Assembly (NCBI GenBank): GCA_036336775.1
Contig: JAYZFM010000042.1
Span: 9,945-73,944 of the forward strand
Direction: 5' to 3'
DNA length: 64,000 bases
Source of the DNA: Bdellovibrionota bacterium
GTDB lineage: Bacteria; Bdellovibrionota; Bacteriovoracia; Bacteriovoracales; Bacteriovoracaceae
In this document: piece after piece, positions 146-56,550 of the stretch
How the letters are laid out: every line of letters starts with the position of its first letter
Position numbering within the stretch: the first letter of the stretch is position 1
Made by a program: the position numbers and the translations under genes
Notes under the pieces: generated by a model
What the model saw: only the letters and a program-made list of their open reading frames with translations
Database searches by the model: none
Told to the model about the DNA's origin: nothing

Positions 146-1372
146 ATGTTTGAAACTTCTCCAAACTTCTATAAGAAGTTGCATCTTTGGCGAGTTGTCA
201 AAAAAGCAAAAAAATCATTTTATTATTACAAGAAGATTAAATCATTTGAAGATTTTGAAATCATAAATAAGAAAAAATATCTCGAAAATTTTAAAGAACT
301 GAATCAACTTGGGTTGAGCTATGATGCTTGTTTGAATCAAGCTTTGTCTCAAGAAGAGTCTCGAGATTTTGCTCCTTTAGATAAAGAATTAGTTATCGGC
401 TTATCATCTGGTACGTCAGGACAAAGGGGGGTCTTTATTGCTTCAGCAAACGAGCAAATGCTTTGGGTCGCTAATATATTTTCACATTTACCTTGGTTTT
501 CTTTGTTCAGAAAAAGTAAGATAGCTTTTTTTTTAAGGGCCAATAGTCCCGTTTATGAGAATGTGTCCAGGTCCAAAAGAATTCAATTTGAATATTTTGA
601 CTTAACAATAAAATTTAACGATTTGCTAGAAAAATTAAAAAAATTTGAACCCACCGTAATTGTGGCACCTCCTTATATTTTGAGCATGATCTTAGATGAC
701 ATGGAGGCAGGGAAGAGTAAATTTTCAAACTTAGAGATAATAGTATCAGTTGCTGATACTATAAGTGAAGATTTGAAGGGGCGTCTCCGCAAAGAATTCA
801 ACTGTCCTGTTCATGAAATTTATCAAGCAACAGAAGGATTCTTGGCAGCAACATGTCGCTATGAAAATCTTCATCTCAATGACGACGTATTACTCTTTGA
901 AGAAAAAATAATTGATGAGAAAACCAATCGCTGGACTCCGATAATCACGGATTATTATAGGCAATCTCAAGCAGTCATTAGGTTTGAATTGAATGATACT
1001 TTAGTAAGTTCTAATAAAGAATGTCCATGTGGCTCTAAAAGAAAGCACATTTTAAAAGTAGAAGGACGAAATGATGAGACTCTTTTAATTCAAGGTCAGC
1101 GCTTTTTTCCTGATTATTTACGTCATGCTGTTCAAAATAGCCTCAGGCACTCTATTGATTTTTGTATCGTTCACCAAGCTGAAAATGAAGTCATGGTAAA
1201 GTTTGAAGGAGAAAAGGATTTGGCTCTTGTTAATGAAGTTGCTAATAATTTGGAAAAACTTTTTCATAGCAAAGAAGTCTTTGGAGTTAATATAAAATTC
1301 GAATTTGGTTTCCAAAGAGAACTTTGGCAGAAAAGAAAAAGAGTCTTCGGTTTAGAGGTAGAAAATGCTTAA
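146..1372 (+). CDS. adenylate-forming enzyme, PaaK / coenzyme F390 synthetase-like
   Basis: From ORF 62..1372. Motifs GLSSGTSGQRGVF and YQATEG are typical of PaaK/F390-synthetase-type acyl-adenylate ligases. The first ATG at 146 (MFETSPNF) is preferred over TTG at 62, whose 28-aa extension is basic and low-complexity. The 3' end overlaps the next gene by 8 nt. Confidence 0.6.
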   Translation: MFETSPNFYKKLHLWRVVKKAKKSFYYYKKIKSFEDFEIINKKKYLENFKELNQLGLSYDACLNQALSQEESRDFAPLDKELVIGLSSGTSGQRGVFIASANEQMLWVANIFSHLPWFSLFRKSKIAFFLRANSPVYENVSRSKRIQFEYFDLTIKFNDLLEKLKKFEPTVIVAPPYILSMILDDMEAGKSKFSNLEIIVSVADTISEDLKGRLRKEFNCPVHEIYQATEGFLAATCRYENLHLNDDVLLFEEKIIDEKTNRWTPIITDYYRQSQAVIRFELNDTLVSSNKECPCGSKRKHILKVEGRNDETLLIQGQRFFPDYLRHAVQNSLRHSIDFCIVHQAENEVMVKFEGEKDLALVNEVANNLEKLFHSKEVFGVNIKFEFGFQRELWQKRKRVFGLEVENA

Positions 1373-2444
1373 GGCTAATTATTCTTCCGCAACAAGCGAT
1401 TTTGATAGAGAACTAAAAGATAGAGTTTCAAAATATCTTGATAATCTTGGAACCGATCACTATCGCACTCGTAGTCAGTTTATCTTATTCTACCTTTTGT
1501 TTAGCTTAATAGGTATTTATAGAAGCTTTTTTTATTTCGATTATGCATTTTGGCAGACAGTAATAGTGCTACTCGTACTCGGGGTCCACCTTATTATGGC
1601 GGGAACAAGTATTTTACATGAGTTAACACATCAAGATATTTTTAAAAACAAAATTCTTAATAAAGCTGTTCTCGCAGTCTTTGATTGTCTGCTTTGTTTT
1701 AGTACGATTCAATACAAGCTTCGTCACCTTAAAGTACATCATAGTCTAACCAATGTAGGGGAGTTTGATTATGATTTAGATACTAATGGAGTTATAAGGC
1801 TTTCACCGAGTTTTGCCAGACAATCTATTCATCGTTACCAAAAGATTTATGCTTTTCTTTTGTATCCAATAGGTATTGTGCATATTGCATGGATAGAAGA
1901 TTTTAAGCGCTTTTTTACTGCGTCGGTTGGAGTACAAAAACATGAGGCATGGAAGAAAGCAGATTGGATTTGGCTTTTTCTTTCTAAAGGGATTCACTTT
2001 ATTCTTTTTCTTTTTCTTCCTGCAAAGCATTTTGGATGGTCATCAGTTCTGGCATCCTATTTTTTTGTATTTTTTATTTGTGGGTTAGGCATTTCTCTTA
2101 TATTTCAAGTCTCTCATGTGAATTCCAAGATAATGTATTTCGATAAGACTCCTCAAGATGGAGTCCTTGATTTACCATTTAGTTGGTACAGTCATCAATT
2201 ACGAACGACAGCAAACTACGGGACCAAATCATTTATCACTTTATTGTTCACTGGTGGTGTTAATTTTCAAGTAGAACATCATATGTTCCCTAATCTTTCT
2301 TATTGGCATCTTCCGGCTATTAATAAAATCGTAAAAGAACTTAGTGTGAAGCATAATCATCCGTATTTTGAATTTTCAACTTGGTTCCGTGCCGTACAGG
2401 ATCATTATTTTACACTTGATAAATTAGGTGGAGATGACTCTTAG
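1365..2444 (+). CDS. membrane fatty-acid desaturase, front-end (Delta6-FADS-like) type without cytochrome b5 domain
   Basis: Three histidine boxes are present: HELTH, HLKVHH and QVEHH (in GGVNFQVEHHMFP). There are multiple TM segments and no HPGG b5 motif at the N-terminus. Confidence 0.85.
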   Translation: MLKANYSSATSDFDRELKDRVSKYLDNLGTDHYRTRSQFILFYLLFSLIGIYRSFFYFDYAFWQTVIVLLVLGVHLIMAGTSILHELTHQDIFKNKILNKAVLAVFDCLLCFSTIQYKLRHLKVHHSLTNVGEFDYDLDTNGVIRLSPSFARQSIHRYQKIYAFLLYPIGIVHIAWIEDFKRFFTASVGVQKHEAWKKADWIWLFLSKGIHFILFLFLPAKHFGWSSVLASYFFVFFICGLGISLIFQVSHVNSKIMYFDKTPQDGVLDLPFSWYSHQLRTTANYGTKSFITLLFTGGVNFQVEHHMFPNLSYWHLPAINKIVKELSVKHNHPYFEFSTWFRAVQDHYFTLDKLGGDDS

Positions 2445-19523: not shown

Positions 19524-19943
19524 ATGATGACTCAAGAGACTTATCAATTTACGGTTGGCAGTTCACAAAATTGTGAAGTAATGATTAGTAGTCCCACCGT
19601 AAGTCGCGCACACCTCAAAGTTTATTTCGCGGGTGATAGCATCTTAGTTGAAGATTTAAACTCTAGTAATGGGACTTTCGTTCTTCATGATGGCGAATTC
19701 AAGAGAATTAAAAGCGCAAAGATAAAGCCTGAGACTAAAATCAGACTTGGAAGTGGTTTAGATGCCCTCGAAGTAAAAGATATTATCGGGCTTTATGAAT
19801 CAGCTCGTGAAAAAAGTAAAAACGATATTATAAAAAGGATAAAAACTGGTGGTTTAAAAAGATGTTTTGATTGTGGTACTGTTTTAAGTAAAGAAAAAAT
19901 ACATTGTGAATGTTGTGGTGCCATTTTTGAAGAAGCTTCTTAG
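19524..19943 (+). CDS. FHA-domain protein with C-terminal zinc ribbon
   Basis: RBS aaggagag upstream. FHA core VGSSQNCEVMISSPTVSRAHLKVYF...LNSSNGTFV. C-terminal Cys pattern CFDCG-x10-CECCG. Confidence 0.75.
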   Translation: MMTQETYQFTVGSSQNCEVMISSPTVSRAHLKVYFAGDSILVEDLNSSNGTFVLHDGEFKRIKSAKIKPETKIRLGSGLDALEVKDIIGLYESAREKSKNDIIKRIKTGGLKRCFDCGTVLSKEKIHCECCGAIFEEAS

Positions 19944-20688
19944 TTCTAAAGAAACATTTTTTACATTATTCGTTTGTTCTATCGGCGTTTTAGTCGTCAA
20001 TTTGTTTTTTACATTTACACCTGCATTCTGGTCGATAATGTTTATCGGGAAGAAGCATATTTTAGGTGGAATCACCTTTCAGGATGTCATGTGGGCCATA
20101 TTTTTTCTAGGGCTCATGCAAATCTATTATCGAAAACGAGATATTGCAAAACTCGATCTTTATAGTACAAAAAACTATCTTCCCAAAGACTTTGAAACGA
20201 TTATTGGCGAGCAAGAACTAACTGAAGTCATAAGAAACGTGCGAGAAGATTCCAAGGATAGCATGGGAATTCTCCCGTATATGATCTTGCAAATAGCCCT
20301 TCAATTTAGAAAGAATAATTCGAGATCGATAACCTCAGATTTTCTTTCGAAACAATTGGAGCTTTTTCTTCATTCTGTTGAGCTTCGATACAACCAATTA
20401 AAATATATTATTTGGCTTATTCCATCACTGGGATTTATGGGAACAGTATATGGTATTGGACTCGCTGTATCCCAGTTAGGCGAGGGCTCTCTTGAAGACC
20501 CTGAACTATTAACTAAGATGGCGGGAAGTCTTGGGGTGGCATTTAATACCACTTTGCTCGCATTAGTTTTATCAGTGATCCTTCAGTTTTTTACTCAGCA
20601 CTTCGAAGCGCAGGAAGAAAGCTTAATCAATAAATTCGGGAAATATATCTTAGATAATTTAATAAATAAACTAGTGGAAAAATCATGA
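19906..20688 (+). CDS. MotA/TolQ/ExbB-family proton-channel protein
   Basis: Core motif PSLGFMGTVYGIGLAV ... LGVAFNTTLLALVLSVILQFF. The start is uncertain: GTG at 19906, or nearby GTG/TTG codons. It overlaps the FHA gene. Confidence 0.65.
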   Translation: MNVVVPFLKKLLSSKETFFTLFVCSIGVLVVNLFFTFTPAFWSIMFIGKKHILGGITFQDVMWAIFFLGLMQIYYRKRDIAKLDLYSTKNYLPKDFETIIGEQELTEVIRNVREDSKDSMGILPYMILQIALQFRKNNSRSITSDFLSKQLELFLHSVELRYNQLKYIIWLIPSLGFMGTVYGIGLAVSQLGEGSLEDPELLTKMAGSLGVAFNTTLLALVLSVILQFFTQHFEAQEESLINKFGKYILDNLINKLVEKS

Positions 20689-21593
20689 GGGCGCGAAAGT
20701 CGAGAGAGGTAAATATATTTTCTGCTTCGGTCGTTGATCTATTCGCTTCAGGGCTTGGAGTCTTTCTTATTGTGGCGATCATAGCTTTGGCCAATCAAAA
20801 AAAAGAAACCTCGCGTGCGCTTGAAGGTGGTCAAACAGGAACAATTATTAAAACGCCTGAGAATAGCAAGCTTGTTGGGAAAGAACAGAATTTTGCCAAT
20901 AGCGATGCTCCCCTTATTTCTTCTCTTGAATCAAAAATAGAAAAATTGGAAGCTTCTGTAGACCTGAAAACAAAAGAAAATTTAAGTCTAAGAAAAAAAA
21001 TAGCAACCAATTCAGATTCTGAAGATAAAACTGATTATGAATTTCTATTGGCCGCTGCTGAAAAAGAAAAAAAAGAATTGGCCAAAAAAGTTTCAGAACT
21101 AGAAGCGAAATTAGAACAAAAAGAACTAGAAAAAATGGAAATTAAAAGGGAACTAACTTATAAGCAGGACGCCAGAAAAGGGGAGCAAGGGGTCGCTAAT
21201 AACTTTGATAACTTTCAGATCGGTTCACGTTTTAAACTTCAGAATGTTCACTTTTATCCTGGAACAGAAAAAGCAATAGAGCCTTATTCAAGTCGTGAAG
21301 TGGAAGATCTCGCTTTGTTCTTAAAGAAAAATCCAGCTGTTTCAATCGAAATTTCAGGTCATATATATGAAACTAAAAAGGCCATAGAAGCAGGCAAGGC
21401 TGATGATGAATTTAATTTATCAGGAAGAAGGGCACAGTACGTTTGTCAGAAGCTAGAGGAGTTTGGAGTAAATCCAAAAAGATTGAGGTGCCTAGGTTAT
21501 GGCGCAACAAGACCTCTATACTTAACAGATGACCAGTATTCTGAGGAAGCCCAATTGAATAGAAGAGTTGAAGTTGAAATCCTTACCAAATAA
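20685..21593 (+). CDS. MotB/OmpA-like protein: TM with conserved Asp, long coiled coil, C-terminal OmpA peptidoglycan-binding domain
   Basis: N-terminal segment EVNIFSASVVDLFASGLGVFLIV. An E/K-rich coiled coil of about 150 aa. OmpA_C motifs ISGHIY, NLSGRRAQYV, GYGATRP and NRRVEVEIL. There is a 4-nt start/stop overlap with the MotA-like gene. Confidence 0.75.
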   Translation: MRARKSREVNIFSASVVDLFASGLGVFLIVAIIALANQKKETSRALEGGQTGTIIKTPENSKLVGKEQNFANSDAPLISSLESKIEKLEASVDLKTKENLSLRKKIATNSDSEDKTDYEFLLAAAEKEKKELAKKVSELEAKLEQKELEKMEIKRELTYKQDARKGEQGVANNFDNFQIGSRFKLQNVHFYPGTEKAIEPYSSREVEDLALFLKKNPAVSIEISGHIYETKKAIEAGKADDEFNLSGRRAQYVCQKLEEFGVNPKRLRCLGYGATRPLYLTDDQYSEEAQLNRRVEVEILTK

Positions 21594-24082: not shown

Positions 24083-24170
24083 TGGTGCTCGGGGCGGGAC
24101 TTGAACCCGCACAGCTAAATTAGCCGAGGGATTTTAAATCCCTTGTGTCTACCAATTCCACCACCCGAGC
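24083..24170 (-). tRNA. tRNA-Leu (anticodon UAA), CCA encoded
   Basis: The minus strand reads GCTCGGG-TG-GTGGAATTGGTAGACAC-A-AGGGA-TTTAAAA-TCCCT-long variable arm-GCGGGTTCAAGTCCCGC-CCCGAGC-A-CCA. It folds as a cloverleaf with a 7-bp acceptor stem and a type-II variable arm. Confidence 0.9.
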
Positions 24171-24219: not shown

Positions 24220-25737
24220 ATGAGTAAGATTTCAAAACTAATTCTCAGTATTTTATTTCTCAGCGCATGCTCTAGTGTGGAAAGCATTAAAGAGTCAGTT
24301 GATGATCTTGTGCCTCTAGATCTTTCTGAAAAAGAGAAAGCGGTATTCGGGAATAAGGATTATGCGGACGCCTTGGTGTCCAAAGTCGTACCTAAATGGT
24401 TTGAGGTGGATGACCGGTTCAAATTGACTTCTAGTATGGGGGAGAAACCGGCTCATTTGTTTTATGATGTTCAGCCAGATTTAAATGCAGAAAATTATAA
24501 ATTAAATTTTGTAATCACCACACCTGAAGGGAGCGACAAGTTATACAATATTGATATGCTCTCTGGTCAGCATTATGTTGATAAAATACTTTGCGAGCAA
24601 AAAGATATTTTTGGAAAATGGGATGATTCGATTTATAAACCGCCTTTTACTTCTGGCATTGTTCCCCGGATGCTAGATCAATTGGGTACTCCTCAAAAAA
24701 TCATTGTGTTTGGCGATGGTGAATATTTCTCCAAGCATTATCAGGATAACTTTTTTGATGCTCGAGTAATTGGTGGTTATATTGAAAAAGTCTGTCAGAT
24801 AGGCACATGTCCAAAGCTCACTGATTATAATTCTAGGATCGTCGTTGTCGCAGTTCAAAGTGGTAGTGATGACTATAAAGAGGTAAGGGGAATTGAAGAT
24901 CTGCGTACGAAAGTTAATTGGCCGGAAGTAAAAGCATTTATCGAGAATGGTTTCGGAAAAAATTACGTGGCCGGTAAATTTTATCCAAGCTATCGAATGG
25001 GTCCTGAACTTTCAGCACTACAAACTGTTTCTAGTCTAAAGAGCAGATCGATTCTTTTGACCAATAAGCGACTCAATCAGATGAGGAGTTCTTGTTATAA
25101 ACTATATGATTACGTCTGGGAGGCAGTTGCCAAGCCATCAGATGTTGAGAAAAAATTGGCAGCAGCAAAATCTTTAAAGGAGCGGCGAGACATAATTCGA
25201 GGATCTAATAAGGAGTCGAGAAGATTCTTTTACGAACGCTTTAAAAATGCCTTTGTGAAGTTTGGTGATGAATATAATGTTTGTTCAAAATTTGTTTATC
25301 CAACAAATATTTTCACTAATCCTGAGAGGCATTGGTTTATGGCTCACTATGCGGCTGTGCATTTGTTGAATGACTTGGGATATAGCTTTGATTGTAACCG
25401 CTCTCTTTGGGTGAAGAATCCTATTTTAACAGACGGGACAAAGGCAATTAAAAGAAATAAAGAATTTGCTAAGTGTAATGCTAGGCAAGTCGATCTTGCT
25501 TTTGAACAGTCCATAAATTACTTGAATAACCTAAGGTTTAAGAACTATCCTACTTATCGATATATTGATTATGATAGAGGGTCCATCGGAACGCATAATA
25601 AGTTGTATTCCTGGGTTTACCAAGAAAATAAAAAACTTCAATGCTATGGGAAGCAAGAAGATCTGGTAGAGAAAGTTCCAACTTTTCCAGAAGATATTAA
25701 ATGGCGTAGAAGGGCCACAATTCTAAGAACAAAATAG
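24220..25737 (+). CDS. lipoprotein, unknown function
   Basis: Lipobox LFLSACSS. 505 aa. It lies only 6 nt upstream of the NuoB-like gene. Confidence 0.6.
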   Translation: MSKISKLILSILFLSACSSVESIKESVDDLVPLDLSEKEKAVFGNKDYADALVSKVVPKWFEVDDRFKLTSSMGEKPAHLFYDVQPDLNAENYKLNFVITTPEGSDKLYNIDMLSGQHYVDKILCEQKDIFGKWDDSIYKPPFTSGIVPRMLDQLGTPQKIIVFGDGEYFSKHYQDNFFDARVIGGYIEKVCQIGTCPKLTDYNSRIVVVAVQSGSDDYKEVRGIEDLRTKVNWPEVKAFIENGFGKNYVAGKFYPSYRMGPELSALQTVSSLKSRSILLTNKRLNQMRSSCYKLYDYVWEAVAKPSDVEKKLAAAKSLKERRDIIRGSNKESRRFFYERFKNAFVKFGDEYNVCSKFVYPTNIFTNPERHWFMAHYAAVHLLNDLGYSFDCNRSLWVKNPILTDGTKAIKRNKEFAKCNARQVDLAFEQSINYLNNLRFKNYPTYRYIDYDRGSIGTHNKLYSWVYQENKKLQCYGKQEDLVEKVPTFPEDIKWRRRATILRTK

Positions 25738-25743
25738 AGAATT

Positions 25744-26187
25744 ATGAGTTTAACTAATTTTATTGAAAATATACATTTATCTAGCCAAGAAAAAATTGGC
25801 AATCTTTCAGTTCCTATAAGTATTTGGGGAAATGGAGCAGCTGATGCTATACAAAGTAGTTATGATTATTTTGAGTATGAACAGAGCTTCAATGGTATAT
25901 GGGAGAGCGAATATCAACCTGCAAAAATTATTTTGATTGTTGGTCCAATTAATACTGTCCAGTTAAATGAAATTAAGGACAGGTTACAAAGTTTAGAAAA
26001 GCAGAAGCCTTTTGTCGTTTATGCTGAAGGTCTTTTACCTAAAAGAGTATTAAATAATGCCAAGGGAGTTGTAAAAGACATCCGAAATCATATTAGAGTT
26101 GATCTTGAGTATCAGAAACATCCTATTCAATTGAAGGAACTTATTTCAGGTGTTTTTGATTTAATGAAGGGTAGAGATGAAAAGTAA
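25744..26187 (+). CDS. degenerate NuoB-like (complex I / hydrogenase small-subunit-like) protein lacking Fe-S cysteines
   Basis: Its segments are collinear with canonical NuoB, but every cluster Cys is replaced. GNGAADAIQ replaces GLSCCxxEM. KIILIVGPINTVQLNEIKDRLQSLEKQKPFVVYAEG replaces ADLMVVAGT..KWVISMGACANSGG. RVDLEYQKHP replaces VDVYIPGCPP. Confidence 0.45.
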   Translation: MSLTNFIENIHLSSQEKIGNLSVPISIWGNGAADAIQSSYDYFEYEQSFNGIWESEYQPAKIILIVGPINTVQLNEIKDRLQSLEKQKPFVVYAEGLLPKRVLNNAKGVVKDIRNHIRVDLEYQKHPIQLKELISGVFDLMKGRDEK

Positions 26188-27679
26188 TCTTAATTTAATT
26201 CACGAACTATCTGGATATAAAACCTATCAATGTGAGTTCAATCAATTCAACTCTTTTGTTTTCAGCTTAGGAAGTGATAATAATTATATCTGGCTTTTAG
26301 GAATTCATTGTCTTGACCAAAATTCACAGTTAACAAAGCTTCGCTATTACTTTTTTGATTTTGAAGAGAAAGATCAATTTTGTGTGGAAGTTGAAATTCC
26401 AAGTGGAGAAAAACTTTATTCAATATCGCACCTTTGGAAAAATGCTAGCTTCTATGAAAGGCAGTTGATTCAGCAAACAGGACTGACTCTTAAAAAAGAT
26501 TATAGATTTAAAGAGCCTGTAAAAGATGATAGGGACTATCTTGATCTGCAAACAGTTGAGTTTCCTAGTAACTTGAAAAAGAACACTCATTTACTTGATC
26601 TTAGAATGGATAAGAATAAAGTGGCAAAAGCTAATTTCAGAAAAGGGCTCTTCCATATTGGACTTGAAGATATTTTGTCAGGGCTTGATTGGAATTTGTC
26701 GTTTCAAACTTTAGAGAACTACTTTCCTAAAAGAGGATTGTTGTGGAGTTTTTTGATTAGTAGAGGGATAGAATTAAAGGAAAATATTGAGATCCCTGAT
26801 AGGGCCAAAGCTATTCGAATGGTGACGTTTGAACTCAATCGAATTCTAGATCATCTATTATACTTTGATCAAGTGGCGGTAGATTTCAAAAGTGCAGTCC
26901 TGATTGACTTTACTCGACTGTGGATTAAAAAATTTCAGTCGCTAATGATATCTTATTCAGGCAACGAGTTTGGTTTAAATCTAATCCGACCAGGAGGGAC
27001 GACACTCGATTTAAGCCAAGCATGGAGTTCACGCATGATTGATGAACTTTCTATGCTTGAAAAACATCTGGTTGCCTTAATAAAAGATTATCTTTTAACA
27101 TTTAAGTTCAACGAGAACGCTCTAAATTTTAGTCTCGTTGAAAAAGAAGATGTCATAAAGTGGGGATTGACCGGACCTGTTGCTAGAAGTGTTGGAGTTA
27201 ATTTAGATCTAAGAAAAAGAGATCCATTCTATTTCTATCAAGATGTAGAATTTGATATTCCTATGGGAGTTCAAGGGACTCTCTATGATTTGTTTTTGGT
27301 TAAAATCGAAGAAATTTTACAATCAAGTCGAATTATTGTTCAGGTCCTAGATAATTTACCAACAGGAAATTTTATTAGTCCAGACTTACCCACTGATTTC
27401 CTACATAATCTAGATCAAGTTGATGAGCAAAATTATAAAAAAAGTGTTGAGAACTATTTAAACTTCTCGTCACTTAACGCTACAGCTTTTATTGAAAGCC
27501 CTCGTGGAGTTATTGGGGTGGACCTAATTAAATCTGATGAGAAGCAATTGGTAAGGCTACTTGGAAGCCATTTTGCTGAACCATCATATTTAGAACGTTT
27601 CTTAGAGAACAAAGACATCATGAATGTTTTTCCTCTATGGACTTCAATGGATATCGATTTGAGAGAAGTGGAGCGATAA
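26177..27679 (+). CDS. degenerate NuoC-NuoD fusion-like protein
   Basis: NuoC-like WKNASFYERQLIQQTGL. NuoD-like GLFHIGLEDIL (vs GYLHRGxEKL), NRILDHLLY, IESPRGVIGVDL (vs EAPRGE.G), and a C-terminal MDIDLREVER (vs D.V.GE.DR). No NiFe Cys motifs. It overlaps the upstream gene by 11 nt. Confidence 0.6.
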   Translation: MKSNLNLIHELSGYKTYQCEFNQFNSFVFSLGSDNNYIWLLGIHCLDQNSQLTKLRYYFFDFEEKDQFCVEVEIPSGEKLYSISHLWKNASFYERQLIQQTGLTLKKDYRFKEPVKDDRDYLDLQTVEFPSNLKKNTHLLDLRMDKNKVAKANFRKGLFHIGLEDILSGLDWNLSFQTLENYFPKRGLLWSFLISRGIELKENIEIPDRAKAIRMVTFELNRILDHLLYFDQVAVDFKSAVLIDFTRLWIKKFQSLMISYSGNEFGLNLIRPGGTTLDLSQAWSSRMIDELSMLEKHLVALIKDYLLTFKFNENALNFSLVEKEDVIKWGLTGPVARSVGVNLDLRKRDPFYFYQDVEFDIPMGVQGTLYDLFLVKIEEILQSSRIIVQVLDNLPTGNFISPDLPTDFLHNLDQVDEQNYKKSVENYLNFSSLNATAFIESPRGVIGVDLIKSDEKQLVRLLGSHFAEPSYLERFLENKDIMNVFPLWTSMDIDLREVER

Positions 27680-27680
27680 G

Positions 27681-28118
27681 ATGATAGTAAACCTAAAAGA
27701 TTCAACTCGTTTTAATCCTTTTCGTTTTGTTTTCTCATCGGCTCACGTGTTCTATATCGGTTGGCGCACTAGAGTTGAAGCCGGTAAAATCAATCAAGAT
27801 TCGTTGAAGTTAAAAAAACACTTCACTCATAAATATCCTACGCTAAAAAATGATCAATTAGGAAATAGCCTTTGTATCAGTTGTGAAATTTGCAGTGAAA
27901 TTTGCCCAACTAAAGCAATTGAAATAAAAAAACCGAATATGGTTAACTTTCCGAACACTCTTAAAACGGGTGAGACTCCCCAAAAGTTTTATCTAGATAC
28001 TTCTCATTGTACTCGATGTAACTTATGCGCCATCGCTTGTCCGACTGATGCAATCGAACTAACTGGAGATTATAGCCAATTAATTCGTGTTAACTTAGTT
28101 GAACGAGCTATGAGTTAA
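27681..28118 (+). CDS. NuoI-like 2x[4Fe-4S] ferredoxin subunit
   Basis: Two intact motifs, CISCEICSEICP and CTRCNLCAIACP, with NuoI-type spacing and flanks (KAIEI..., DAIELTGDY). The start is 1 nt after the stop of the upstream gene. Confidence 0.75.
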   Translation: MIVNLKDSTRFNPFRFVFSSAHVFYIGWRTRVEAGKINQDSLKLKKHFTHKYPTLKNDQLGNSLCISCEICSEICPTKAIEIKKPNMVNFPNTLKTGETPQKFYLDTSHCTRCNLCAIACPTDAIELTGDYSQLIRVNLVERAMS

Positions 28119-29831: not shown

Positions 29832-30614
29832 ATGATAAATATCAAATCGGCCCGTGAAATCGAAATAATGAAGCAATCTTGTCAACTAGCGGCGAAGACT
29901 TTGAACTTCATTGAAGATAAAATTGAGATCGGAATGACCACTGAGGACGTGAATGCAATATGTCACAAGTATATCGTCGACAATGGCGCTTATCCCTCGC
30001 CACTAAATTATCATGGTTTCCCGAAGTCAGTTTGTACCTCACTTAATGAAGTTATCTGTCATGGAATTCCAAGTAAAAAGGATAAATTGAAAGATGGTGA
30101 CATCCTCAATGTTGATGTGACGACTTTCTATAAAAACTTTCACGGTGATACAAATAGAACTTATTTTGTGGGAGAGGTTTCTCCTGAGATCAAAAAGCTA
30201 GTAAAAGTAACTTACGATTGTATGATGGCCGGAATTAATGTTTGTAAGCCAGGTGCGAGACTTGGTGATATTGGAGCGGTCATTGAAGAGATGGCACATG
30301 ACAATGGCTATACTGTTGTTCATGAATACTGTGGTCATGGAATCGGTAGAGAGTTTCATGAGGAGCCACAAATTCTTCACTATGGTACTCGTGGAGCAGG
30401 TGCTGAAATGAAGCCTGGTATGACTTTTACTATCGAGCCGATGATTAATTTAGGAAAGAGACATTGTAAGCTTATGAAGGATGGATGGACTGTTATCACT
30501 AAAGATAAAAAACCTTCGGCACAGTTCGAACATACAATTTTAATTACAGAGTCAGGGTATGAAATTCTAACTCTTGATCCTGAAAAACCGTATCAGCCGA
30601 CTTTTGATGTATGA
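29832..30614 (+). CDS. map: type I methionine aminopeptidase
   Basis: VICHGIP, NVDVT, GDTNRT, YCGHGIG, FTIEPM and QFEHT metal-ligand blocks. Confidence 0.95.
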   Translation: MINIKSAREIEIMKQSCQLAAKTLNFIEDKIEIGMTTEDVNAICHKYIVDNGAYPSPLNYHGFPKSVCTSLNEVICHGIPSKKDKLKDGDILNVDVTTFYKNFHGDTNRTYFVGEVSPEIKKLVKVTYDCMMAGINVCKPGARLGDIGAVIEEMAHDNGYTVVHEYCGHGIGREFHEEPQILHYGTRGAGAEMKPGMTFTIEPMINLGKRHCKLMKDGWTVITKDKKPSAQFEHTILITESGYEILTLDPEKPYQPTFDV

Positions 30615-31282
30615 GACATATCGTTCAAGGCATTGAGTTTGATATCACTCTCGATTCCAAAAACTGCCTTTATGAACTTAAGAGTAGTCATAGTCTAGCG
30701 CAAGCTTATTGCGAGAGCTTACTCAATCTTGAAATCGATCAGGCAATTTCCAAACTATATGAAACGATCGAAAGCAACTCCTATACTGTCGGTTGGAAAC
30801 TTTTAATCGCACTCAAATCTGCTCGAGGAGATAAACGTCTTTTTTACGAAAATCCAAAGCGAGATCAAATCATTTGTCGTTGCCAAGGTTATTCATTGTC
30901 AGATTTGTATAAACTTGAGGGGCAGCTTGATCTAAAAACACTCATGAGAGAAACCTCTGTAGGAATGGTATGTGCCAGTTGCAGACCAGAGCTCAATTCA
31001 GTTATAGGTAAACTTGATGATGAGAAAATGCTATATAAAGGAATTTCCTATCATCAATGGCGTGAAAAAATTGAGAATTCTTTGGGAGAGTACAAAGAGT
31101 ACGCCGGTATCGATTTAAATTCCTTCGTCGCAAGATTTGAGATTGTCGATTTTCCAAAAATCAAAATCTATTCGAATGATAGTGATTTTGTTCAAGATGA
31201 AAAAAACTCAGTTCGACTTGGGAATTACTTTTCTATGAAGCTTGAAACCCCGGTGAGTGTCGATTTAGCAATCTCTATTTAA
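30611..31282 (+). CDS. hypothetical protein with BFD-like [2Fe-2S]-binding motif
   Basis: ICRCQGYSLSDL ... VGMVCASCRPEL gives a CxC...CxxC pattern like BFD/NifU-type domains. ATGA overlap with map. Confidence 0.4.
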   Translation: MRHIVQGIEFDITLDSKNCLYELKSSHSLAQAYCESLLNLEIDQAISKLYETIESNSYTVGWKLLIALKSARGDKRLFYENPKRDQIICRCQGYSLSDLYKLEGQLDLKTLMRETSVGMVCASCRPELNSVIGKLDDEKMLYKGISYHQWREKIENSLGEYKEYAGIDLNSFVARFEIVDFPKIKIYSNDSDFVQDEKNSVRLGNYFSMKLETPVSVDLAISI

Positions 31283-51795: not shown

Positions 51796-53688
51796 ATGCG
51801 AATAATGCCATTTCTTCTCTTTTTGAGTTTCATATCAGCTAGTGAGGCGAAGCTTAAAATTGCCATAGATTTTGAAGGGGTCCTAGCAAAAAGAGTTCCC
51901 ATTAGATCTCTTAACAACTATCCGGCAAATGATATCGTTAAAGGAAATAATGTTCATATGTATATTCGCCCTGAGACGGCAGATGTTTTAGGAAAAATAT
52001 TAGATAGCGATGAAATCGAGTTGGTGATTGTTAACTCTGATCATCGAATTGATAATCCAGATATCGAAGATTTTATTTCTAACTTCAAAATTAATTCAAA
52101 GTCTTTAAAAGACTTTCCTGTTTCTGTGTATAAAGTGGCAGACCTAGATAAAGGGATCGATCTCTCAAAAATTGAATCAAATCTTTCAAAAATAATCTAT
52201 TTAAAAGATAGCAGTGATAAAGTTCAAATGACTTCTATTGCTAACACTATGACGGTAGGTCCTTTTGATTTTGCTTTTAAAGATTTTAAATCACATGAGT
52301 ATGTGAGAAAGCAAATTGGTTCTAAATTCCCTAATTCCTTTGTTAAAAATCAGCATGAATTTGATCTGAGTCAAAATCGTTGGAGGTTAACTCATAAGTC
52401 ACTGCTGGAAATTTATAAGGAATACCTTCGCGGAAAATCGATTAGAAGTCTTGGAGTAGATAAAATTCAATTTGACCATAACGATTTGAACCAAGCTCCT
52501 AACGAAAGCTTTGCAGTTATTTATAAATGGGATCAAAAAGGCGATGAGTTTGTTTGCTCTCGAGAAAGTCGTGATACCGGAGAAATCTTTTCCGAAGGAG
52601 AGGCAGAGCTTTGTTATGGAAATGAGCAAAAGAATTATTTAAAACTTGCTGATCAAATATCTCAGGAACTTATTGAAGTTAATAAATGTATGGATATTGT
52701 TGTCCCTAAGGTCGCGGACGCTAAGGACCTAAATAAACGCTTAAAAGAATTTTTAGCTGATGTAAAATCCGAGGCCAGTACTCTTGCAGATCCAAGCTAT
52801 ACCGTCTCGGCACTGGTGCGAAATTACAAAGCAGATATGCAAGATATTTTGGATCAATGTAAAAACATCGCTGATGCCAAGGGGATAGCTTTTAGTAATG
52901 ACCATTACTTTCAAAAACTTCTTCGGAAGCCTTATCATCAAATAACACTTGATGAGCTTCTTACACTTTGGTTTCCGCAAGATAGAAAAAAATTAAAAAG
53001 AAATTACTTCGATCACTGCGGAAGAAAAAATGGTAATCCTCACGAGGTGAGAAATAATTATGTAATCGAATCTTGTGCTCCCGATACTCTTTATCGCTGG
53101 AGTGATGATCTATACCTAGGGCTAATGAAAGCTGCGATGCCAGATGGTGGTAATTGGGCGCAAAGACCGAGTGGTGGGCGAACGATATATACTTTTTTAA
53201 GCCCTGCTGTGACTCATGGTTATGGACCTATTGCATTTCGTTTTAAGATTAAACCAGGTGTTAAATTTACCACGACTTCTCAGCATCATTCTAGCTGTGG
53301 TAGCTGGAACCAGACTTCTGCTGATACCGAGATTTATTATAACAATTGGGGTGGGTTGGATGTTGATATCTGTAGTCCTGCCGGAGTGGTTGAGTCTTGG
53401 AGTTATAACACCCGTGAACTTTATGATGAAATCGTTAAAGATTGGCAGTGGAATCAAAGATACTCTCACTCGCAGTCCCTTGTTTATTGGCATGCTCATT
53501 TAAATGAAGATTTGTCTGGTAGAATTGATGGTCATCAATTTGGTGCCGAGGTCATGAGGTCACGCCTGTATGGAATTGCAAAAGCTATTCTCTCTGGTGA
53601 TGGAGGAGTATTTACCCCAAGTGGAGAGGCTATTAAAAAAGATCGTCATTATAAAACAGGTAAAGCCTATTACGCTAATGAAGAATAA
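51796..53688 (+). CDS. secreted hypothetical protein with a C-terminal domain shared with 57243..59495
   Basis: Signal peptide MRIMPFLLFLSFISASEA. The C-terminal motifs LYRWSDD, GRTIYTFLSPAVTHGYGPIAFRFKI and VVESWS parallel the N-terminus of the 750-aa protein. Confidence 0.55.
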   Translation: MRIMPFLLFLSFISASEAKLKIAIDFEGVLAKRVPIRSLNNYPANDIVKGNNVHMYIRPETADVLGKILDSDEIELVIVNSDHRIDNPDIEDFISNFKINSKSLKDFPVSVYKVADLDKGIDLSKIESNLSKIIYLKDSSDKVQMTSIANTMTVGPFDFAFKDFKSHEYVRKQIGSKFPNSFVKNQHEFDLSQNRWRLTHKSLLEIYKEYLRGKSIRSLGVDKIQFDHNDLNQAPNESFAVIYKWDQKGDEFVCSRESRDTGEIFSEGEAELCYGNEQKNYLKLADQISQELIEVNKCMDIVVPKVADAKDLNKRLKEFLADVKSEASTLADPSYTVSALVRNYKADMQDILDQCKNIADAKGIAFSNDHYFQKLLRKPYHQITLDELLTLWFPQDRKKLKRNYFDHCGRKNGNPHEVRNNYVIESCAPDTLYRWSDDLYLGLMKAAMPDGGNWAQRPSGGRTIYTFLSPAVTHGYGPIAFRFKIKPGVKFTTTSQHHSSCGSWNQTSADTEIYYNNWGGLDVDICSPAGVVESWSYNTRELYDEIVKDWQWNQRYSHSQSLVYWHAHLNEDLSGRIDGHQFGAEVMRSRLYGIAKAILSGDGGVFTPSGEAIKKDRHYKTGKAYYANEE

Positions 53689-54759: not shown

Positions 54760-56550
54760 ATGAAAAATACCAAACTGAACCTCTTAGTTTTACTTGCCGT
54801 TGCAAGTTCTCAGGCATACTCAACGGAAGCCTTAATTGAGGATGTTGTTGTTCCTGAAGAAGTGGTAGCGCCAGTTGAAATCGTAGAGCCTAGCTTTGAT
54901 AGAATCAATTTAGACGAGGCAGGGAAGTTTCAATTCATTAATAATAGAAATTTTATCAAACATAATATGGTAGAGTTTGAAGGTGTTGAGTACAACTTTT
55001 CGAACTTATCTAGTTTGGCCTATTCTCCTGTTGAGGATCTCTATTACGGAGTCATCGACAGAACGGATCATCAAGATGAAACATCTGCGCAAATTTTTAA
55101 ATTTAAAATAAATACGAAAGTAGAAGGTTATAAAAAATCTTATGATGTGGAAATCAAGGCAGCGATGAGCCTTAAGGATGCTCAAGGACAAGAGCTAGGT
55201 TTTCTTGATGTGGAAGCAGTTGAGATAGACAAAAACGGAGACATTCTAATTGTTGCCGAGTCTACTTCTAATCCGACGATTGGTTATACAGATTCAAGTA
55301 AAATTATCCGCTTTGATAAAGAGGCTAAGATTATCTCTGTTGAATCAATTGCCGAGAGTATTGAGAATAAAACTCTCATTCATAACCCTAATAATATTCC
55401 TGAGCCAGGAGATTTAGAGCTACTAGATCTACCTCGTAGACCTAGAAAACCAGCATATCCTAGGTATCACTCTAAGGTTCCTCAAGCGAGCACTCCTGAA
55501 TACAATGAGCCTGAGTTTCAAACTCCAGCTAACTTAGTCAAAGTGCCTAAAGAAGAGTATGAGATTGATGCTGGCGATTGGATCGCCCAGAAAGTATATA
55601 ATATCTTTATTGGCTGGTGGAAAGGCTGGGTAGATTATAGAACTTTAACCAATCATGGCGATATTGAACGCGCGAAAAAAATAAACGCAGATATTATGGC
55701 CCAAGCGAAAATTGACCATGCTGCAGACATTAGAAATGCCAAGGTTGCACATCAAAACGAAGTTGCCACTTGGAAAGTTGAGCGTGAGAAATATCTTGCT
55801 TGGGAAGAAGAAAATATTAAGCCGATCGATATAAAGCATGATCAAGATATGCAGGCCTATAATAAAGAATTCAATACTATTTCGGCAAAAAATAGTTTGA
55901 TTGAAAACGCCTGGCGTGAAGCAAATAGAAAGTGGAATGCTCTTGAAAGAAGACATTATGGGCAAGACGACGCAAATCTTGGAGTTGAATCCTTAGCGAT
56001 CGAACCAGAAACAGAAAGAGTTATCACAGTTACAGAAGGTGCCCTCTCTCAAGATAATGAAGAATTTCTTCGTGTGATAGTGCATGAAGCTGGAAATACC
56101 ACTCAGTACGCTTATGAACTTTCTCATGAGAAATCAGTTGTTTCTGATATCCATGCCCTAGGTAATGGTAAAGTATTAGTGTTAGAAAAGCGTTTTGATT
56201 CAAGAGCGAGAAAGGTTTTTGCTGATCTTTTTATGATTGATATTAACCATTCAGTAGCTCTACGAGATGATAATACTTGGAAAGGTGATTATTCTGAGAT
56301 CGCGGTTAAAAAAGTTAAACTTTTAAATTTAAATTCAGTAGATGAACACCTTACTTATTCAAAAAGTGAGAAGAACTCGACTAGGGGAGCGACCCAGATT
56401 GATAACCTAGAAGGTTTAACTATTGGACCGGTTCTAGAAGATGGAAAAAGACTTATGGTGATTGCAAGTGATGCCAATAGACAGTTGCGTACGAATCAAA
56501 TCACACAGTTTCTTTTCTTTGCTGTCGATGCGAGTGTTTTCGAGGAATAA
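54760..56550 (+). CDS. secreted phytase-like esterase (PF13449-like) propeller protein with a large insertion
   Basis: Signal peptide. LSSLAYSPVEDLYYGVIDR near the N-terminus and IDNLEGLTIGPVLEDGKRLMVIASDANRQ near the C-terminus. A Pro-rich plus coiled-coil insert lies between them. It is a paralogue of 61442..63958. Confidence 0.5.
   Translation: MKNTKLNLLVLLAVASSQAYSTEALIEDVVVPEEVVAPVEIVEPSFDRINLDEAGKFQFINNRNFIKHNMVEFEGVEYNFSNLSSLAYSPVEDLYYGVIDRTDHQDETSAQIFKFKINTKVEGYKKSYDVEIKAAMSLKDAQGQELGFLDVEAVEIDKNGDILIVAESTSNPTIGYTDSSKIIRFDKEAKIISVESIAESIENKTLIHNPNNIPEPGDLELLDLPRRPRKPAYPRYHSKVPQASTPEYNEPEFQTPANLVKVPKEEYEIDAGDWIAQKVYNIFIGWWKGWVDYRTLTNHGDIERAKKINADIMAQAKIDHAADIRNAKVAHQNEVATWKVEREKYLAWEEENIKPIDIKHDQDMQAYNKEFNTISAKNSLIENAWREANRKWNALERRHYGQDDANLGVESLAIEPETERVITVTEGALSQDNEEFLRVIVHEAGNTTQYAYELSHEKSVVSDIHALGNGKVLVLEKRFDSRARKVFADLFMIDINHSVALRDDNTWKGDYSEIAVKKVKLLNLNSVDEHLTYSKSEKNSTRGATQIDNLEGLTIGPVLEDGKRLMVIASDANRQLRTNQITQFLFFAVDASVFEE

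Follow-up and report, generated by a model that had tools for sequence, protein, structure and literature searches.

Four adjacent genes within the analysed stretch of DNA (64 kb, referred to here as the window) encode a lipoprotein, X, together with homologues of the complex I subunits NuoB, NuoCD and NuoI (B', CD' and I'), from which both the ligands of the terminal Fe-S cluster N2 and the quinone-site His and Tyr residues have been lost. The reading we favor, with a probability of roughly one half, is that a complex I encoded in split form gave rise to a membrane complex without quinone-reducing activity, and that these proteins are its degenerate hydrophilic cap. We found no published description of an N2-less module of this kind.

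The four genes are tightly spaced and all lie on the plus strand. X (505 aa, positions 24220..25737) is the first gene of the operon, and it is followed after a 6-nt gap by the NuoB (PSST) homologue B' (147 aa, 25744..26187), by the fused NuoC-NuoD (30-kDa plus 49-kDa) protein CD' (500 aa, 26177..27679), which overlaps B' by 11 nt, and, after a single nucleotide, by I' (145 aa, 27681..28118), a NuoI (TYKY)-like 2x[4Fe-4S] ferredoxin subunit. A tRNA-Leu(UAA) gene on the minus strand (24083..24170), located with ARAGORN, forms the upstream boundary. tblastn detected no homologue of NuoA, E, F, G, H, J, K, L, M or N anywhere in the 64-kb window, where membrane subunit genes are absent within 24 kb upstream and 36 kb downstream of the operon, and Pfam revealed no respiratory genes among the 30 other large ORFs. 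A sequence-only reading of the same DNA had described four close-packed plus-strand genes with no membrane subunits and no NuoE/F/G nearby, and a NuoB'/NuoCD'/NuoI set without N2 that shares its operon with a lipoprotein gene; this layout is confirmed here, and the module is real.

B' contains no cysteine and therefore has no ligands for cluster N2. Even though it matched no family in Pfam or NCBIfam, its homology to NuoB is genuine, as judged by profile comparison: a profile of window-type B' aligned with canonical NuoB of related loci with an hhalign probability of 95.8% (E = 6.7e-9), and 22 of its 25 weak matches among solved structures were NuoB, PSST, NdhK or MbhJ. In this alignment, YAEGLLP of B' falls on GACAASGGP and QKHPI falls on PGCPP, in line with the ligand replacements proposed earlier, and the positions of the E. 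coli ligands C129 and C158 are occupied by L and H. A third proposed replacement, GLSCC by GNGAA, falls outside the confidently aligned stretch and is plausible but unproven, which is immaterial because B' has no Cys. Intermediate forms of NuoB exist, such as that of locus L049 (GSGSS / GSEA / PGSPP).

CD' matched both Pfam Complex1_49kDa (PF00346, E = 8e-37) and Complex1_30kDa (PF00329, E = 1.4e-5, above the curated cut-off), in agreement with the NuoC-like and NuoD-like parts assigned to it before. The sequence-only reading had staked its homologies for the 147-aa and 500-aa proteins on profile searches, and these support NuoB and NuoCD homology. Against NCBIfam NuoD, CD' scored 165 bits (cut-off, 360). 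The best solved structure was 8ba0_D (E = 6.5e-30), and complex I 49-kDa subunits were the top matches, with Mbh and formate hydrogenlyase (FHL) far behind. The quinone-site signature is gone: in the beta1-beta2 loop, GPxHPxxHG (with His38) is replaced by EFPSNLKKNTHLL, and the Tyr87 equivalent is Phe (ENYF). This loss had not been remarked before; attention had been drawn to the lack of NiFe cysteines, which is true but uninformative, being normal for any NuoD, whereas the quinone-site residues are the informative losses. I', as had been noted, retains both clusters and its likeness to NuoI: two intact CxxCxxCxxxC motifs (8 Cys), a match to NuoI TIGR01971 (E = 9e-17, 60.8 bits; cut-off, 113) and, as the best single-domain solved structure, T. 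thermophilus Nqo9 (2fug_9, E = 6.4e-9, residues 44-132).

Comparison of 88 loci with the window places these losses in a graded series. Synteny joins all locus types at one orthologous site across Bacteriovoracales, tRNA-Leu(-) / X-B-CD-(E-F-G)-I / aat(-); the tRNA-Leu, which also immediately precedes X in loci of types a, c and e, is a synteny marker with no functional part in the module. Type a (22 loci) has the gene order X-B-CD-E-F-G-I, a full, canonical-looking peripheral arm with the four N2 Cys, GPSHPATHG (His38), RLNY (Tyr87) and VDLGA (Asp139). NuoEFG are lost in type c (11 loci), the N2 ligands and the quinone-site His/Tyr are also lost in type d (16 sources, i.e., 15 loci and the window), and both NuoI cluster motifs are lost too in type e (36 loci). 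Since the type e scaffold persists without any Fe-S site, electron transfer is not what selection maintains. NuoA, NuoH, NuoJ and NuoK were not found in or adjoining the X operon of any locus, and as this includes the catalytic-looking type a, a separate membrane arm is required, at least ancestrally. In a neighbour-joining tree, which is rough and in which long branches may skew the inferred sequence of losses, all X-linked CD proteins fall together as against E. coli, Thermus and actinobacterial-like NuoD. The order-wide series of losses was not part of the sequence-only reading.

X carries a signal peptide and a lipobox, L-S-A-C(17), and is a lineage-specific extracytoplasmic (periplasmic) lipoprotein; it matched nothing in Pfam or NCBIfam. 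The lipobox with C17 and eight further Cys, which probably form four disulfides, are invariant in 48 homologues. X, always the leading gene of its operon, was detected upstream in 79 of the 89 sources that the 88 loci and the window make up. In an AlphaFold2 model (pLDDT 89.8), residues ~55-265 adopt the beta-barrel fold of family I soluble inorganic pyrophosphatase (Foldseek E = 5.6e-10; target-normalised TM-score 0.74-0.79), the sole solved-structure family matched by the X profile (8 of 8 matches). X differs from these enzymes in being an exported lipoprotein with probable disulfides and a fused domain of ~240 aa, and in having L/T/K in place of the catalytic Asp triad; other catalytic residues are altered too, and the pyrophosphatase-like domain is catalytically dead. 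The fused alpha/beta domain (residues ~266-505, pLDDT 89.5) had no structural match below E = 1. The pyrophosphatase-like fold is another feature that had gone unremarked.

Supernumerary complex I subunits are taxon-restricted, are encoded alongside the core subunits or bind to them, and sometimes have an enzyme-derived fold; reported cases are Nqo15 and Nqo16 of T. thermophilus and three extra subunits in Paracoccus denitrificans. As a putative extra subunit, X resembles them in its taxonomic restriction and enzyme-derived fold, but the bacterial examples known to us reside in the cytoplasm or the membrane, and none is a periplasmic lipoprotein. X is translationally close-coupled to B' by the short gap between them, and with X periplasmic and B'-CD'-I' cytoplasmic, the two could be functionally joined only via a membrane complex. 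X might also merely share the transcript and not bind the other products, which counts against the cap.

The four genes are one operon, vertically inherited in Bacteriovoracales. We propose that it originally specified X and, with the membrane arm encoded elsewhere, the entire peripheral (hydrophilic) arm of a split respiratory complex I. The lineage of the window (marine, Halobacteriovoraceae-like) has lost: the NADH-oxidising N-module, NuoEFG; cluster N2 in NuoB; and the quinone-ligating His/Tyr in NuoD. With these gone, the canonical route is closed to both NADH:quinone and ferredoxin:quinone oxidoreduction. In the absence of N2, the final NuoI cluster presumably lies beyond the usual ~14 Å limit of physiological tunnelling to the quinone site, an estimate that we take from published complex I geometry. 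What is kept is the B'-CD'-I' scaffold with its two NuoI clusters, plus X. The scaffold may dock on NuoH/NuoA of an orphan nuoAHJKLMN arm as a structural or regulatory cap, so that the antiporter-like arm would operate or be gated with no quinone chemistry involved, in the manner of an Mrp antiporter; X may reside on the periplasmic face of the membrane arm as an accessory or assembly subunit, and the two NuoI clusters that remain may have a structural role or act as a redox sensor. All Bdellovibrionota are reported to carry an orphan nuoAHJKLMN at a common site, with a "split arrangement" in Bdellovibrio-and-like organisms (PMC13147790), and Bacteriovorax marinus SJ has nuoA (PMC3526173); from these papers on related strains, the organism of the window would be expected to carry nuoAHJKLMN. 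B. marinus also has Na+-NQR (PMC4014512), so that NADH:quinone activity is covered there by another enzyme.

The sequence-only reading had described a soluble, free-standing complex. In such a case, B'-CD'-I' would be free in the cytoplasm, independent of a membrane arm, and would have a new role, such as that of a ferredoxin-like redox sensor or an electron carrier via its NuoI clusters. The absence of membrane subunit genes around the operon, the loss of the quinone site and N2, which link the module to membrane-bound quinone, and the retention of the NuoI clusters in type d are consistent with this notion. However, type a, with its canonical arm, shares the split layout, so that missing adjacent membrane genes are the ancestral arrangement and not diagnostic of solubility. 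Moreover, the conserved operon partner is periplasmic, membrane-arm genes are reported in related genomes (PMC13147790, PMC3526173), and sister type e retains the scaffold without any Fe-S motif, which argues against a redox carrier. A soluble complex is thus unsupported as first stated, and we regard it as unlikely.

B'-CD'-I', together with X, might instead be an assembly scaffold or placeholder and no stable set of subunits, transiently binding membrane-arm intermediates or chaperoning them for a separate, fully functional complex I. Catalytic sites would be dispensable in this role, and in one type e locus (L093) a complete canonical nuoD-E-F-G-H-I-J-K-L-M-N operon lies immediately upstream of the X operon, and NuoM/N lie upstream in nine loci. 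In type e genomes the degenerate module is thus a paralogue-like extra set, an arrangement equally compatible with the cap and with an assembly factor or some other role. However, the two gene sets in L093 are parted by an opposite-strand ORF and a tRNA and are therefore separate transcription units, no canonical nuo operon was seen near the operon of the window, and type a shows that the operon originally specified a genuine catalytic arm and no chaperone. We know of no precedent for full-length pseudo-subunits as bacterial assembly factors, and consider this role quite unlikely.

Strict retention of both NuoI cluster motifs in most type d loci would also suit residual redox chemistry on the membrane arm, in which electrons pass from ferredoxin through the I' clusters to a non-quinone acceptor and still drive ion translocation; complex-I-like enzymes that lack NuoEFG and draw on other donors occur widely (PMC12361115). 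However, N2 and the His38/Tyr87 equivalents are missing, no candidate acceptor site was identified, and the clusters are missing altogether from the related type e lineage, making this improbable.

All four genes are under strong purifying selection: against a 95-96% identical relative, dN/dS was 0.012 for X, 0.020 for B', 0.029 for I' and 0.055 for CD' (dS 0.21-0.31), and the ORFs are intact and keep a constant length across dozens of lineages that share 25-50% identity; in CD', 29 columns are invariant. Of the earlier alternatives, "relic or repurposed", only the second stands; a non-functional, decaying leftover of a complex I operon would account for the loss of all catalytic signatures from B' and CD', but is effectively refuted by this constraint.

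The cap reading can be set beside known systems. The module shares homologous subunits in the same order (B, C-D, I) with the Q-module of complex I (E. coli NuoB-CD-I; T. thermophilus Nqo6/5/4/9), as well as the C-D fusion of E. coli and both NuoI clusters, and CD' is closer to 49-kDa subunits than to hydrogenase large subunits. It differs in lacking the N2 ligands, the His38 loop and Tyr87, in NCBIfam scores far below equivalog cut-offs, and in having no adjacent NuoA/NuoH, with a lipoprotein gene in the place of nuoA. The 11-subunit NDH-1 of cyanobacteria and chloroplasts, Fpo and the "C-I-like" class (PMC12361115) also lack NuoE, NuoF and NuoG, and split gene arrangements are common among such N-module-less enzymes (PMC12361115), but they keep N2 and the quinone site and are still oxidoreductases. 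Ehr, Mbx and Mbs retain "catalytic" subunits after losing catalytic-site ligands (PMC6349859), and the module likewise retains subunits of the complex I/group 4 hydrogenase type minus such ligands. Ehr genes, however, are kin of group 4 hydrogenases and cluster with Mrp-like membrane subunits, whereas the module lies apart from membrane genes, next to a lipoprotein, and descends from a true complex I arm, represented by type a with NuoEFG and quinone-site residues. Given that all stages of the loss are represented in relatives at one genomic site, the operon of this predatory marine bacterium is a repurposed part of complex I and not junk.

The operon consists of four forward-strand open reading frames (ORFs), those of the lipoprotein X (24220-25737, 505 aa), the NuoB homologue B' (25744-26187, 147 aa), the fused NuoC-NuoD protein CD' (26177-27679, 500 aa) and the NuoI-like protein I' (27681-28118, 145 aa). 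X and B' are separated by a 6-nt gap, B' and CD' overlap by 11 nt, and CD' and I' are 1 nt apart. A tRNA-Leu(UAA) gene on the reverse strand (24083-24170) lies directly upstream of X, and aat, the leucyl/phenylalanyl-tRNA-protein transferase gene, is convergent with the 3' end of the operon. The window has a G+C content of ~37%, and a MAG, "Bacteriovoracaceae bacterium YZ12D_3.8", shares ~95-96% DNA identity with it over the four genes. The opposite-strand tRNA-Leu(UAA) gene adjoins the 5' side of X in every locus type (the window, L005, L024, L029, L050, L052, L063, L064 and L090), and longest-ORF calls of X read through it, producing spurious N-terminal peptides ("RLCQLK", "PISPPGQEDD", "ARLELARLE") that are a trap for gene callers. 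The apparently conserved "RLCQLK" and "PISPPG" at the X N-termini were rejected as a protein motif, as they represent antisense translation of the tRNA gene. An 83-aa ORF antisense to the 3' end of CD' (27454-27705, reverse strand) is very probably spurious.

The sequence-only reading had described B', CD' and I' as Nuo homologues and every N2 ligand of B' as replaced. This was correct, and profile searches upheld the homology both for the 147-aa B' (hhalign) and for the 500-aa CD' (Pfam and solved structures). Searched directly, the window B' had no hit in Pfam or NCBIfam; window-type B' sequences, taken together as a profile, aligned with canonical NuoB from orthologous loci at an hhalign probability of 95.8% (E = 6.7e-9), pairing YAEGLLP with GACAASGGP and QKHPI with PGCPP. 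When solved structures were searched with the window-type profile, 22 of 25 weak matches were NuoB, PSST, NdhK or MbhJ, and the B' orthologues in L005-L007 do match PF01058 (Oxidored_q6). CD' matched Complex1_49kDa (PF00346; E = 8.3e-37, 127 bits against a cut-off of 24) and, at residues 35-105, Complex1_30kDa (PF00329; 26.1 bits against 22.5, E = 1.4e-5), while remaining below the NuoD equivalog cut-offs of NCBIfam NF004739 and TIGR01962 (165 bits vs 360 and 143 bits vs 459, respectively). I' matched the NuoI model TIGR01971 at E = 9e-17 with 60.8 bits, under the cut-off of 113, and it aligns with the solved structure of Thermus Nqo9 over residues 44-132. All three proteins are predicted to be cytoplasmic, with no signal peptide apparent when their N-termini are read. 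A Tat-exported hydrogenase-like module, brought to mind by a nearby tatC gene, was rejected as the N-termini of B and B' carry no recognizable twin-arginine signal; tatC belongs to a conserved housekeeping synteny block.

The catalytic sites of this module have largely been lost. Four cysteines of NuoB (CC...C...C; C63, C64, C129 and C158 in E. coli) ligate the terminal Fe-S cluster N2, and B' contains none, the third and fourth ligand positions being L and H. In CD', the beta1-beta2 loop GPxHPxxHG that bears the quinone-site His38 of T. thermophilus is absent, and the Tyr87 position is occupied by Phe; this numbering follows a Thermus Nqo4 sequence in which H38, Y87 and D139 fell at their expected positions, and the same picture was obtained with E. 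coli NuoB and with the NuoB and NuoD of L008. The NuoD part of CD' has no cysteine, all three of the protein's cysteines lying in the NuoC-like part, and thus it has no N- or C-terminal CxxC ligands of the group 4 [NiFe] hydrogenases. I' retains two CxxCxxCxxxC(P) [4Fe-4S] motifs with eight cysteines.

Homology links the module to the Q-module of complex I, but the catalytic features that define the latter, the N2 ligands and His38/Tyr87, are missing from it. A group 4 hydrogenase or an Ehr complex was rejected as its nearest kin, since the solved structures closest to CD' are complex I 49-kDa subunits (8ba0_D, E = 6.5e-30), whereas hydrogenase-type structures match much more weakly (MbhL, 5e-16; HycE, 2.5e-8). 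Such an origin is also contradicted by orthologous loci (type a, below) with NuoEFG and the quinone-site residues. The "C-I-like" enzymes without an N-module (PMC12361115) likewise lack NuoEFG, but they keep N2, which is lost here. Ehr complexes (PMC6349859) are similarly ligand-less relatives; the window module, however, derives from complex I proper and has no clustered antiporter-like genes. The open-access literature yielded no earlier account of X or of a NuoB module lacking N2.

X matched no Pfam family, PF00719 included, and no NCBIfam family. Its N-terminus, MSKISKLILSILFLSAC, comprises a signal peptide followed by a lipobox (criterion [LVI][ASTG][GAS]C), and a lipobox was found in all locus types. 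Nine cysteines, that of the lipobox and eight others, are invariant across 48 homologues, which fits an exported, disulfide-bonded lipoprotein. In the AlphaFold2 model of X (pLDDT 89.8), residues ~55-265 are predicted to adopt the fold of family I inorganic pyrophosphatases (Foldseek E = 5.6e-10, target-normalised TM-score 0.74-0.79), and all eight solved structures matched by the X sequence profile are pyrophosphatases. X shares this fold with the enzymes, but in the profile alignment with 6mt1 the catalytic Asp triad (DxDxxD) is replaced by L, T and K and the first Glu by T. As the three catalytic Asp are lost, the N-terminal domain is a pseudo-enzyme. Residues ~262-505, modelled separately (pLDDT 89.5), gave no match to a solved structure with Foldseek. 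The family is small, with 95 proteins recovered by a word-indexed search and 285 clusters at E <= 0.001 among 1.84 billion representative proteins; it is uncharacterised and restricted to this lineage.

A search with CD' yielded about 33 relatives, and a scan of one genome per species raised this to 187, nearly all from Bacteriovoracales. X, B, CD and I, together with canonical Nuo proteins, were mapped on 88 loci and on the window; in 79 of the 89 sources, X is the gene immediately upstream. Wherever the flanks are long enough, loci of every type have tRNA-Leu upstream and aat downstream, indicating that they are all orthologous. The types were assigned by simple rules on longest-ORF calls. 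Type a (22 loci) has the order X-B-CD-E-F-G-I; its NuoB is ~53% identical to canonical NuoB and carries all four N2 cysteines, and its NuoD keeps GPSHPATHG (His38), RLNY (Tyr87) and VDLGA (Asp139). In type b (3 loci), the F- and G-like genes are divergent. Type c (11 loci) is X-B-CD-I with N2 intact and His38 often lost. In type d (15 loci plus the window), B' is without N2 ligands, the beta1-beta2 loop can no longer be recognised and Phe stands in place of Tyr87; of the 15 sources with an identified I, 13 retain the two NuoI motifs. In type e (36 loci), B'' is ~130 aa long (hhalign to NuoB, 95.5%), Tyr87 has given way to an aliphatic residue, and neither NuoI cluster motif remains. Intermediates exist: the NuoB homologues of L049 and L087 read GSGSS, GSEA and PGSPP or PGDPP. 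In a neighbour-joining tree, the X-linked CD proteins all formed one group apart from E. coli, Thermus and a further canonical NuoD, and the separate places of type d, type e and L049 in this rough tree suggest that N2 was lost at least three times.

Several other features of these loci were observed. A third architecture, X-B-CD-F'-G'-I without NuoE, occurs in L020, L028 and L034. Its F- and G-like genes share only ~25% identity with NuoF and NuoG, and its quinone loop has lost the His (HPAIQG); such loci may have a different electron-input module. A few genes downstream of the operon, following the methionine aminopeptidase gene, a protein of ~220-270 aa is encoded (30611-31282, forward strand); it is also present in L005, L006, L093 and several locus types, and its relatives carry a BFD-like [2Fe-2S] domain (PF04324). 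Upstream, a cluster of FHA-domain, MotA/ExbB-like and OmpA/MotB-like genes (19524-21593, forward strand) is conserved in type d (L001-L004 and L009-L014). A fatty-acid desaturase gene (PF00487) directly follows I in some type e loci (L090, L091), and a desaturase homologue is also found at the far left of the window (1365-2444), probably by coincidence. Two large window proteins (54760-56550, forward; 61442-63958, reverse) have phytase-like domains (PF13449), and other ORFs of 600-840 aa nearby (51796-53688, 57243-59495 and 59505-61442) have no Pfam family. Two MAG bins may be mixed: PAVS01 carries two type d loci (L010 and L014, both with full flanking synteny) and CANFNN01 a type a and a type e locus (L041 and L069). 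Two strains sharing a bin seem likelier than a true duplication, and per-genome copy counts from MAGs are therefore unsafe.

Between the window and L009, which are ~95-96% identical in DNA, dS was 0.21-0.31 and dN/dS was 0.012 for X, 0.020 for B', 0.055 for CD' and 0.029 for I'. The module had been proposed to be either a relic or repurposed; the ratios of 0.012-0.055 across the four genes indicate strong selection, and they refute a relic or pseudogene, which is practically excluded, leaving the N2-less, repurposed scaffold as the part of that proposal that stands.

The window contains no gene for a membrane subunit, as judged by tblastn with NuoA/E/F/G/H/J/K of a canonical operon and all 13 E. 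coli Nuo proteins, CD' and I' being the only matches. It has no Mrp-like or NuoL/M/N gene, and no respiratory gene was recognized by Pfam among its 30 other large ORFs; an ordinary nuo operon with adjacent membrane genes was thus rejected. NuoE, NuoF and NuoG are also absent from the window, though present in type a. No related locus showed a match to NuoA, NuoH, NuoJ or NuoK within the X operon or next to it, and as this includes the fully catalytic-looking type a, a separately encoded membrane arm is implied, at least ancestrally. Orphan nuoAHJKLMN genes have been reported at one and the same site in all Bdellovibrionota studied, with nuo described as "split" in Bdellovibrio-and-like organisms (PMC13147790); that Peredibacter genome paper describes the membrane cluster, and the X operon as a candidate partner is absent from its account. 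In addition, a list of genes conserved in Bacteriovorax marinus SJ includes nuoA (PMC3526173). This marine species also has Na+-NQR (PMC4014512), with which the NADH:quinone activity of complex I would be dispensable.

NuoM and NuoN are encoded just upstream of X in nine type e loci. They were rejected as the orphan arm, since extending L093 upstream by 10 kb revealed a complete canonical nuoD-E-F-G-H-I-J-K-L-M-N operon, and their proximity to X is no direct evidence for such a link. This operon, with an unfused NuoD, lies within positions 1-11476 of L093 (B. stolpii MAG CAMCYI01), and similar ones occur in L018, L024, L026, L029, L031, L041, L043, L063, L064 and L090. In many type e genomes, about 0.5-2.3 kb separate its end from the X operon downstream, and a conserved 87-aa ORF follows it, so that a working complex I and an Fe-S-free pseudo-Q-module are neighbours. 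A NuoN homologue search was saturated by close Bacteriovoracaceae relatives (>= 64% identity), with type d genomes beyond its reach.

We consider it about an even bet (probability roughly 0.5) that B'-CD'-I' is a hydrophilic cap, now degenerate, on a membrane arm derived from complex I at which quinone is no longer reduced; that it docks there, that its role is non-redox and where X sits are deduced. As X would be periplasmic and B', CD' and I' cytoplasmic, a membrane complex coupling the two compartments is indicated. A wider form of this reading is more tentative: an order-wide, redox-dead complex I whose arm is still docked with an X subunit and which acts as a non-redox ion translocator or gate. 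FMN and the N-module would have been lost first, then N2 and the quinone ligands, and then every Fe-S cluster, while the arm would have kept its seat on an antiporter-like membrane arm that is itself conserved, joined by a periplasmic pseudo-pyrophosphatase lipoprotein as a new subunit. That the module is truly soluble and repurposed, as the sequence-only reading had it ("soluble, free-standing"), is unlikely. Solubility was based on the absence of membrane genes nearby; the locus formerly encoded a peripheral arm that worked, and such genes were missing from it already in its ancestral state, so that their absence lends the claim no support. An assembly scaffold for canonical complex I is rather less probable still; the adjacent nuo operons of type e genomes would provide a client, and the window itself holds no such operon. 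A residual ferredoxin-linked redox function, for which the clusters of I' might speak, is improbable. As type e dispenses even with the Fe-S clusters, the selected function is probably structural or regulatory rather than electron transfer.

How quinone chemistry in the Q-module drives distant antiporter-like pumps is a central open question of complex I. A scaffold kept under strong selection without N2 and the quinone ligands, and in its sisters without any Fe-S cluster, is a natural dissection of structural from catalytic parts, and as the intermediate stages all lie at one orthologous locus, ancestral-state and structure comparisons are directly feasible. The label "NADH dehydrogenase subunit D" in these genomes should not be taken to imply NADH:quinone activity. 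The X operon is also a candidate partner for the "orphan" nuoAHJKLMN clusters described from Bdellovibrionota and, if the wider reading is true, an entire order of predators would naturally possess a redox-dead complex I that translocates ions, or gates their passage, by non-redox means.
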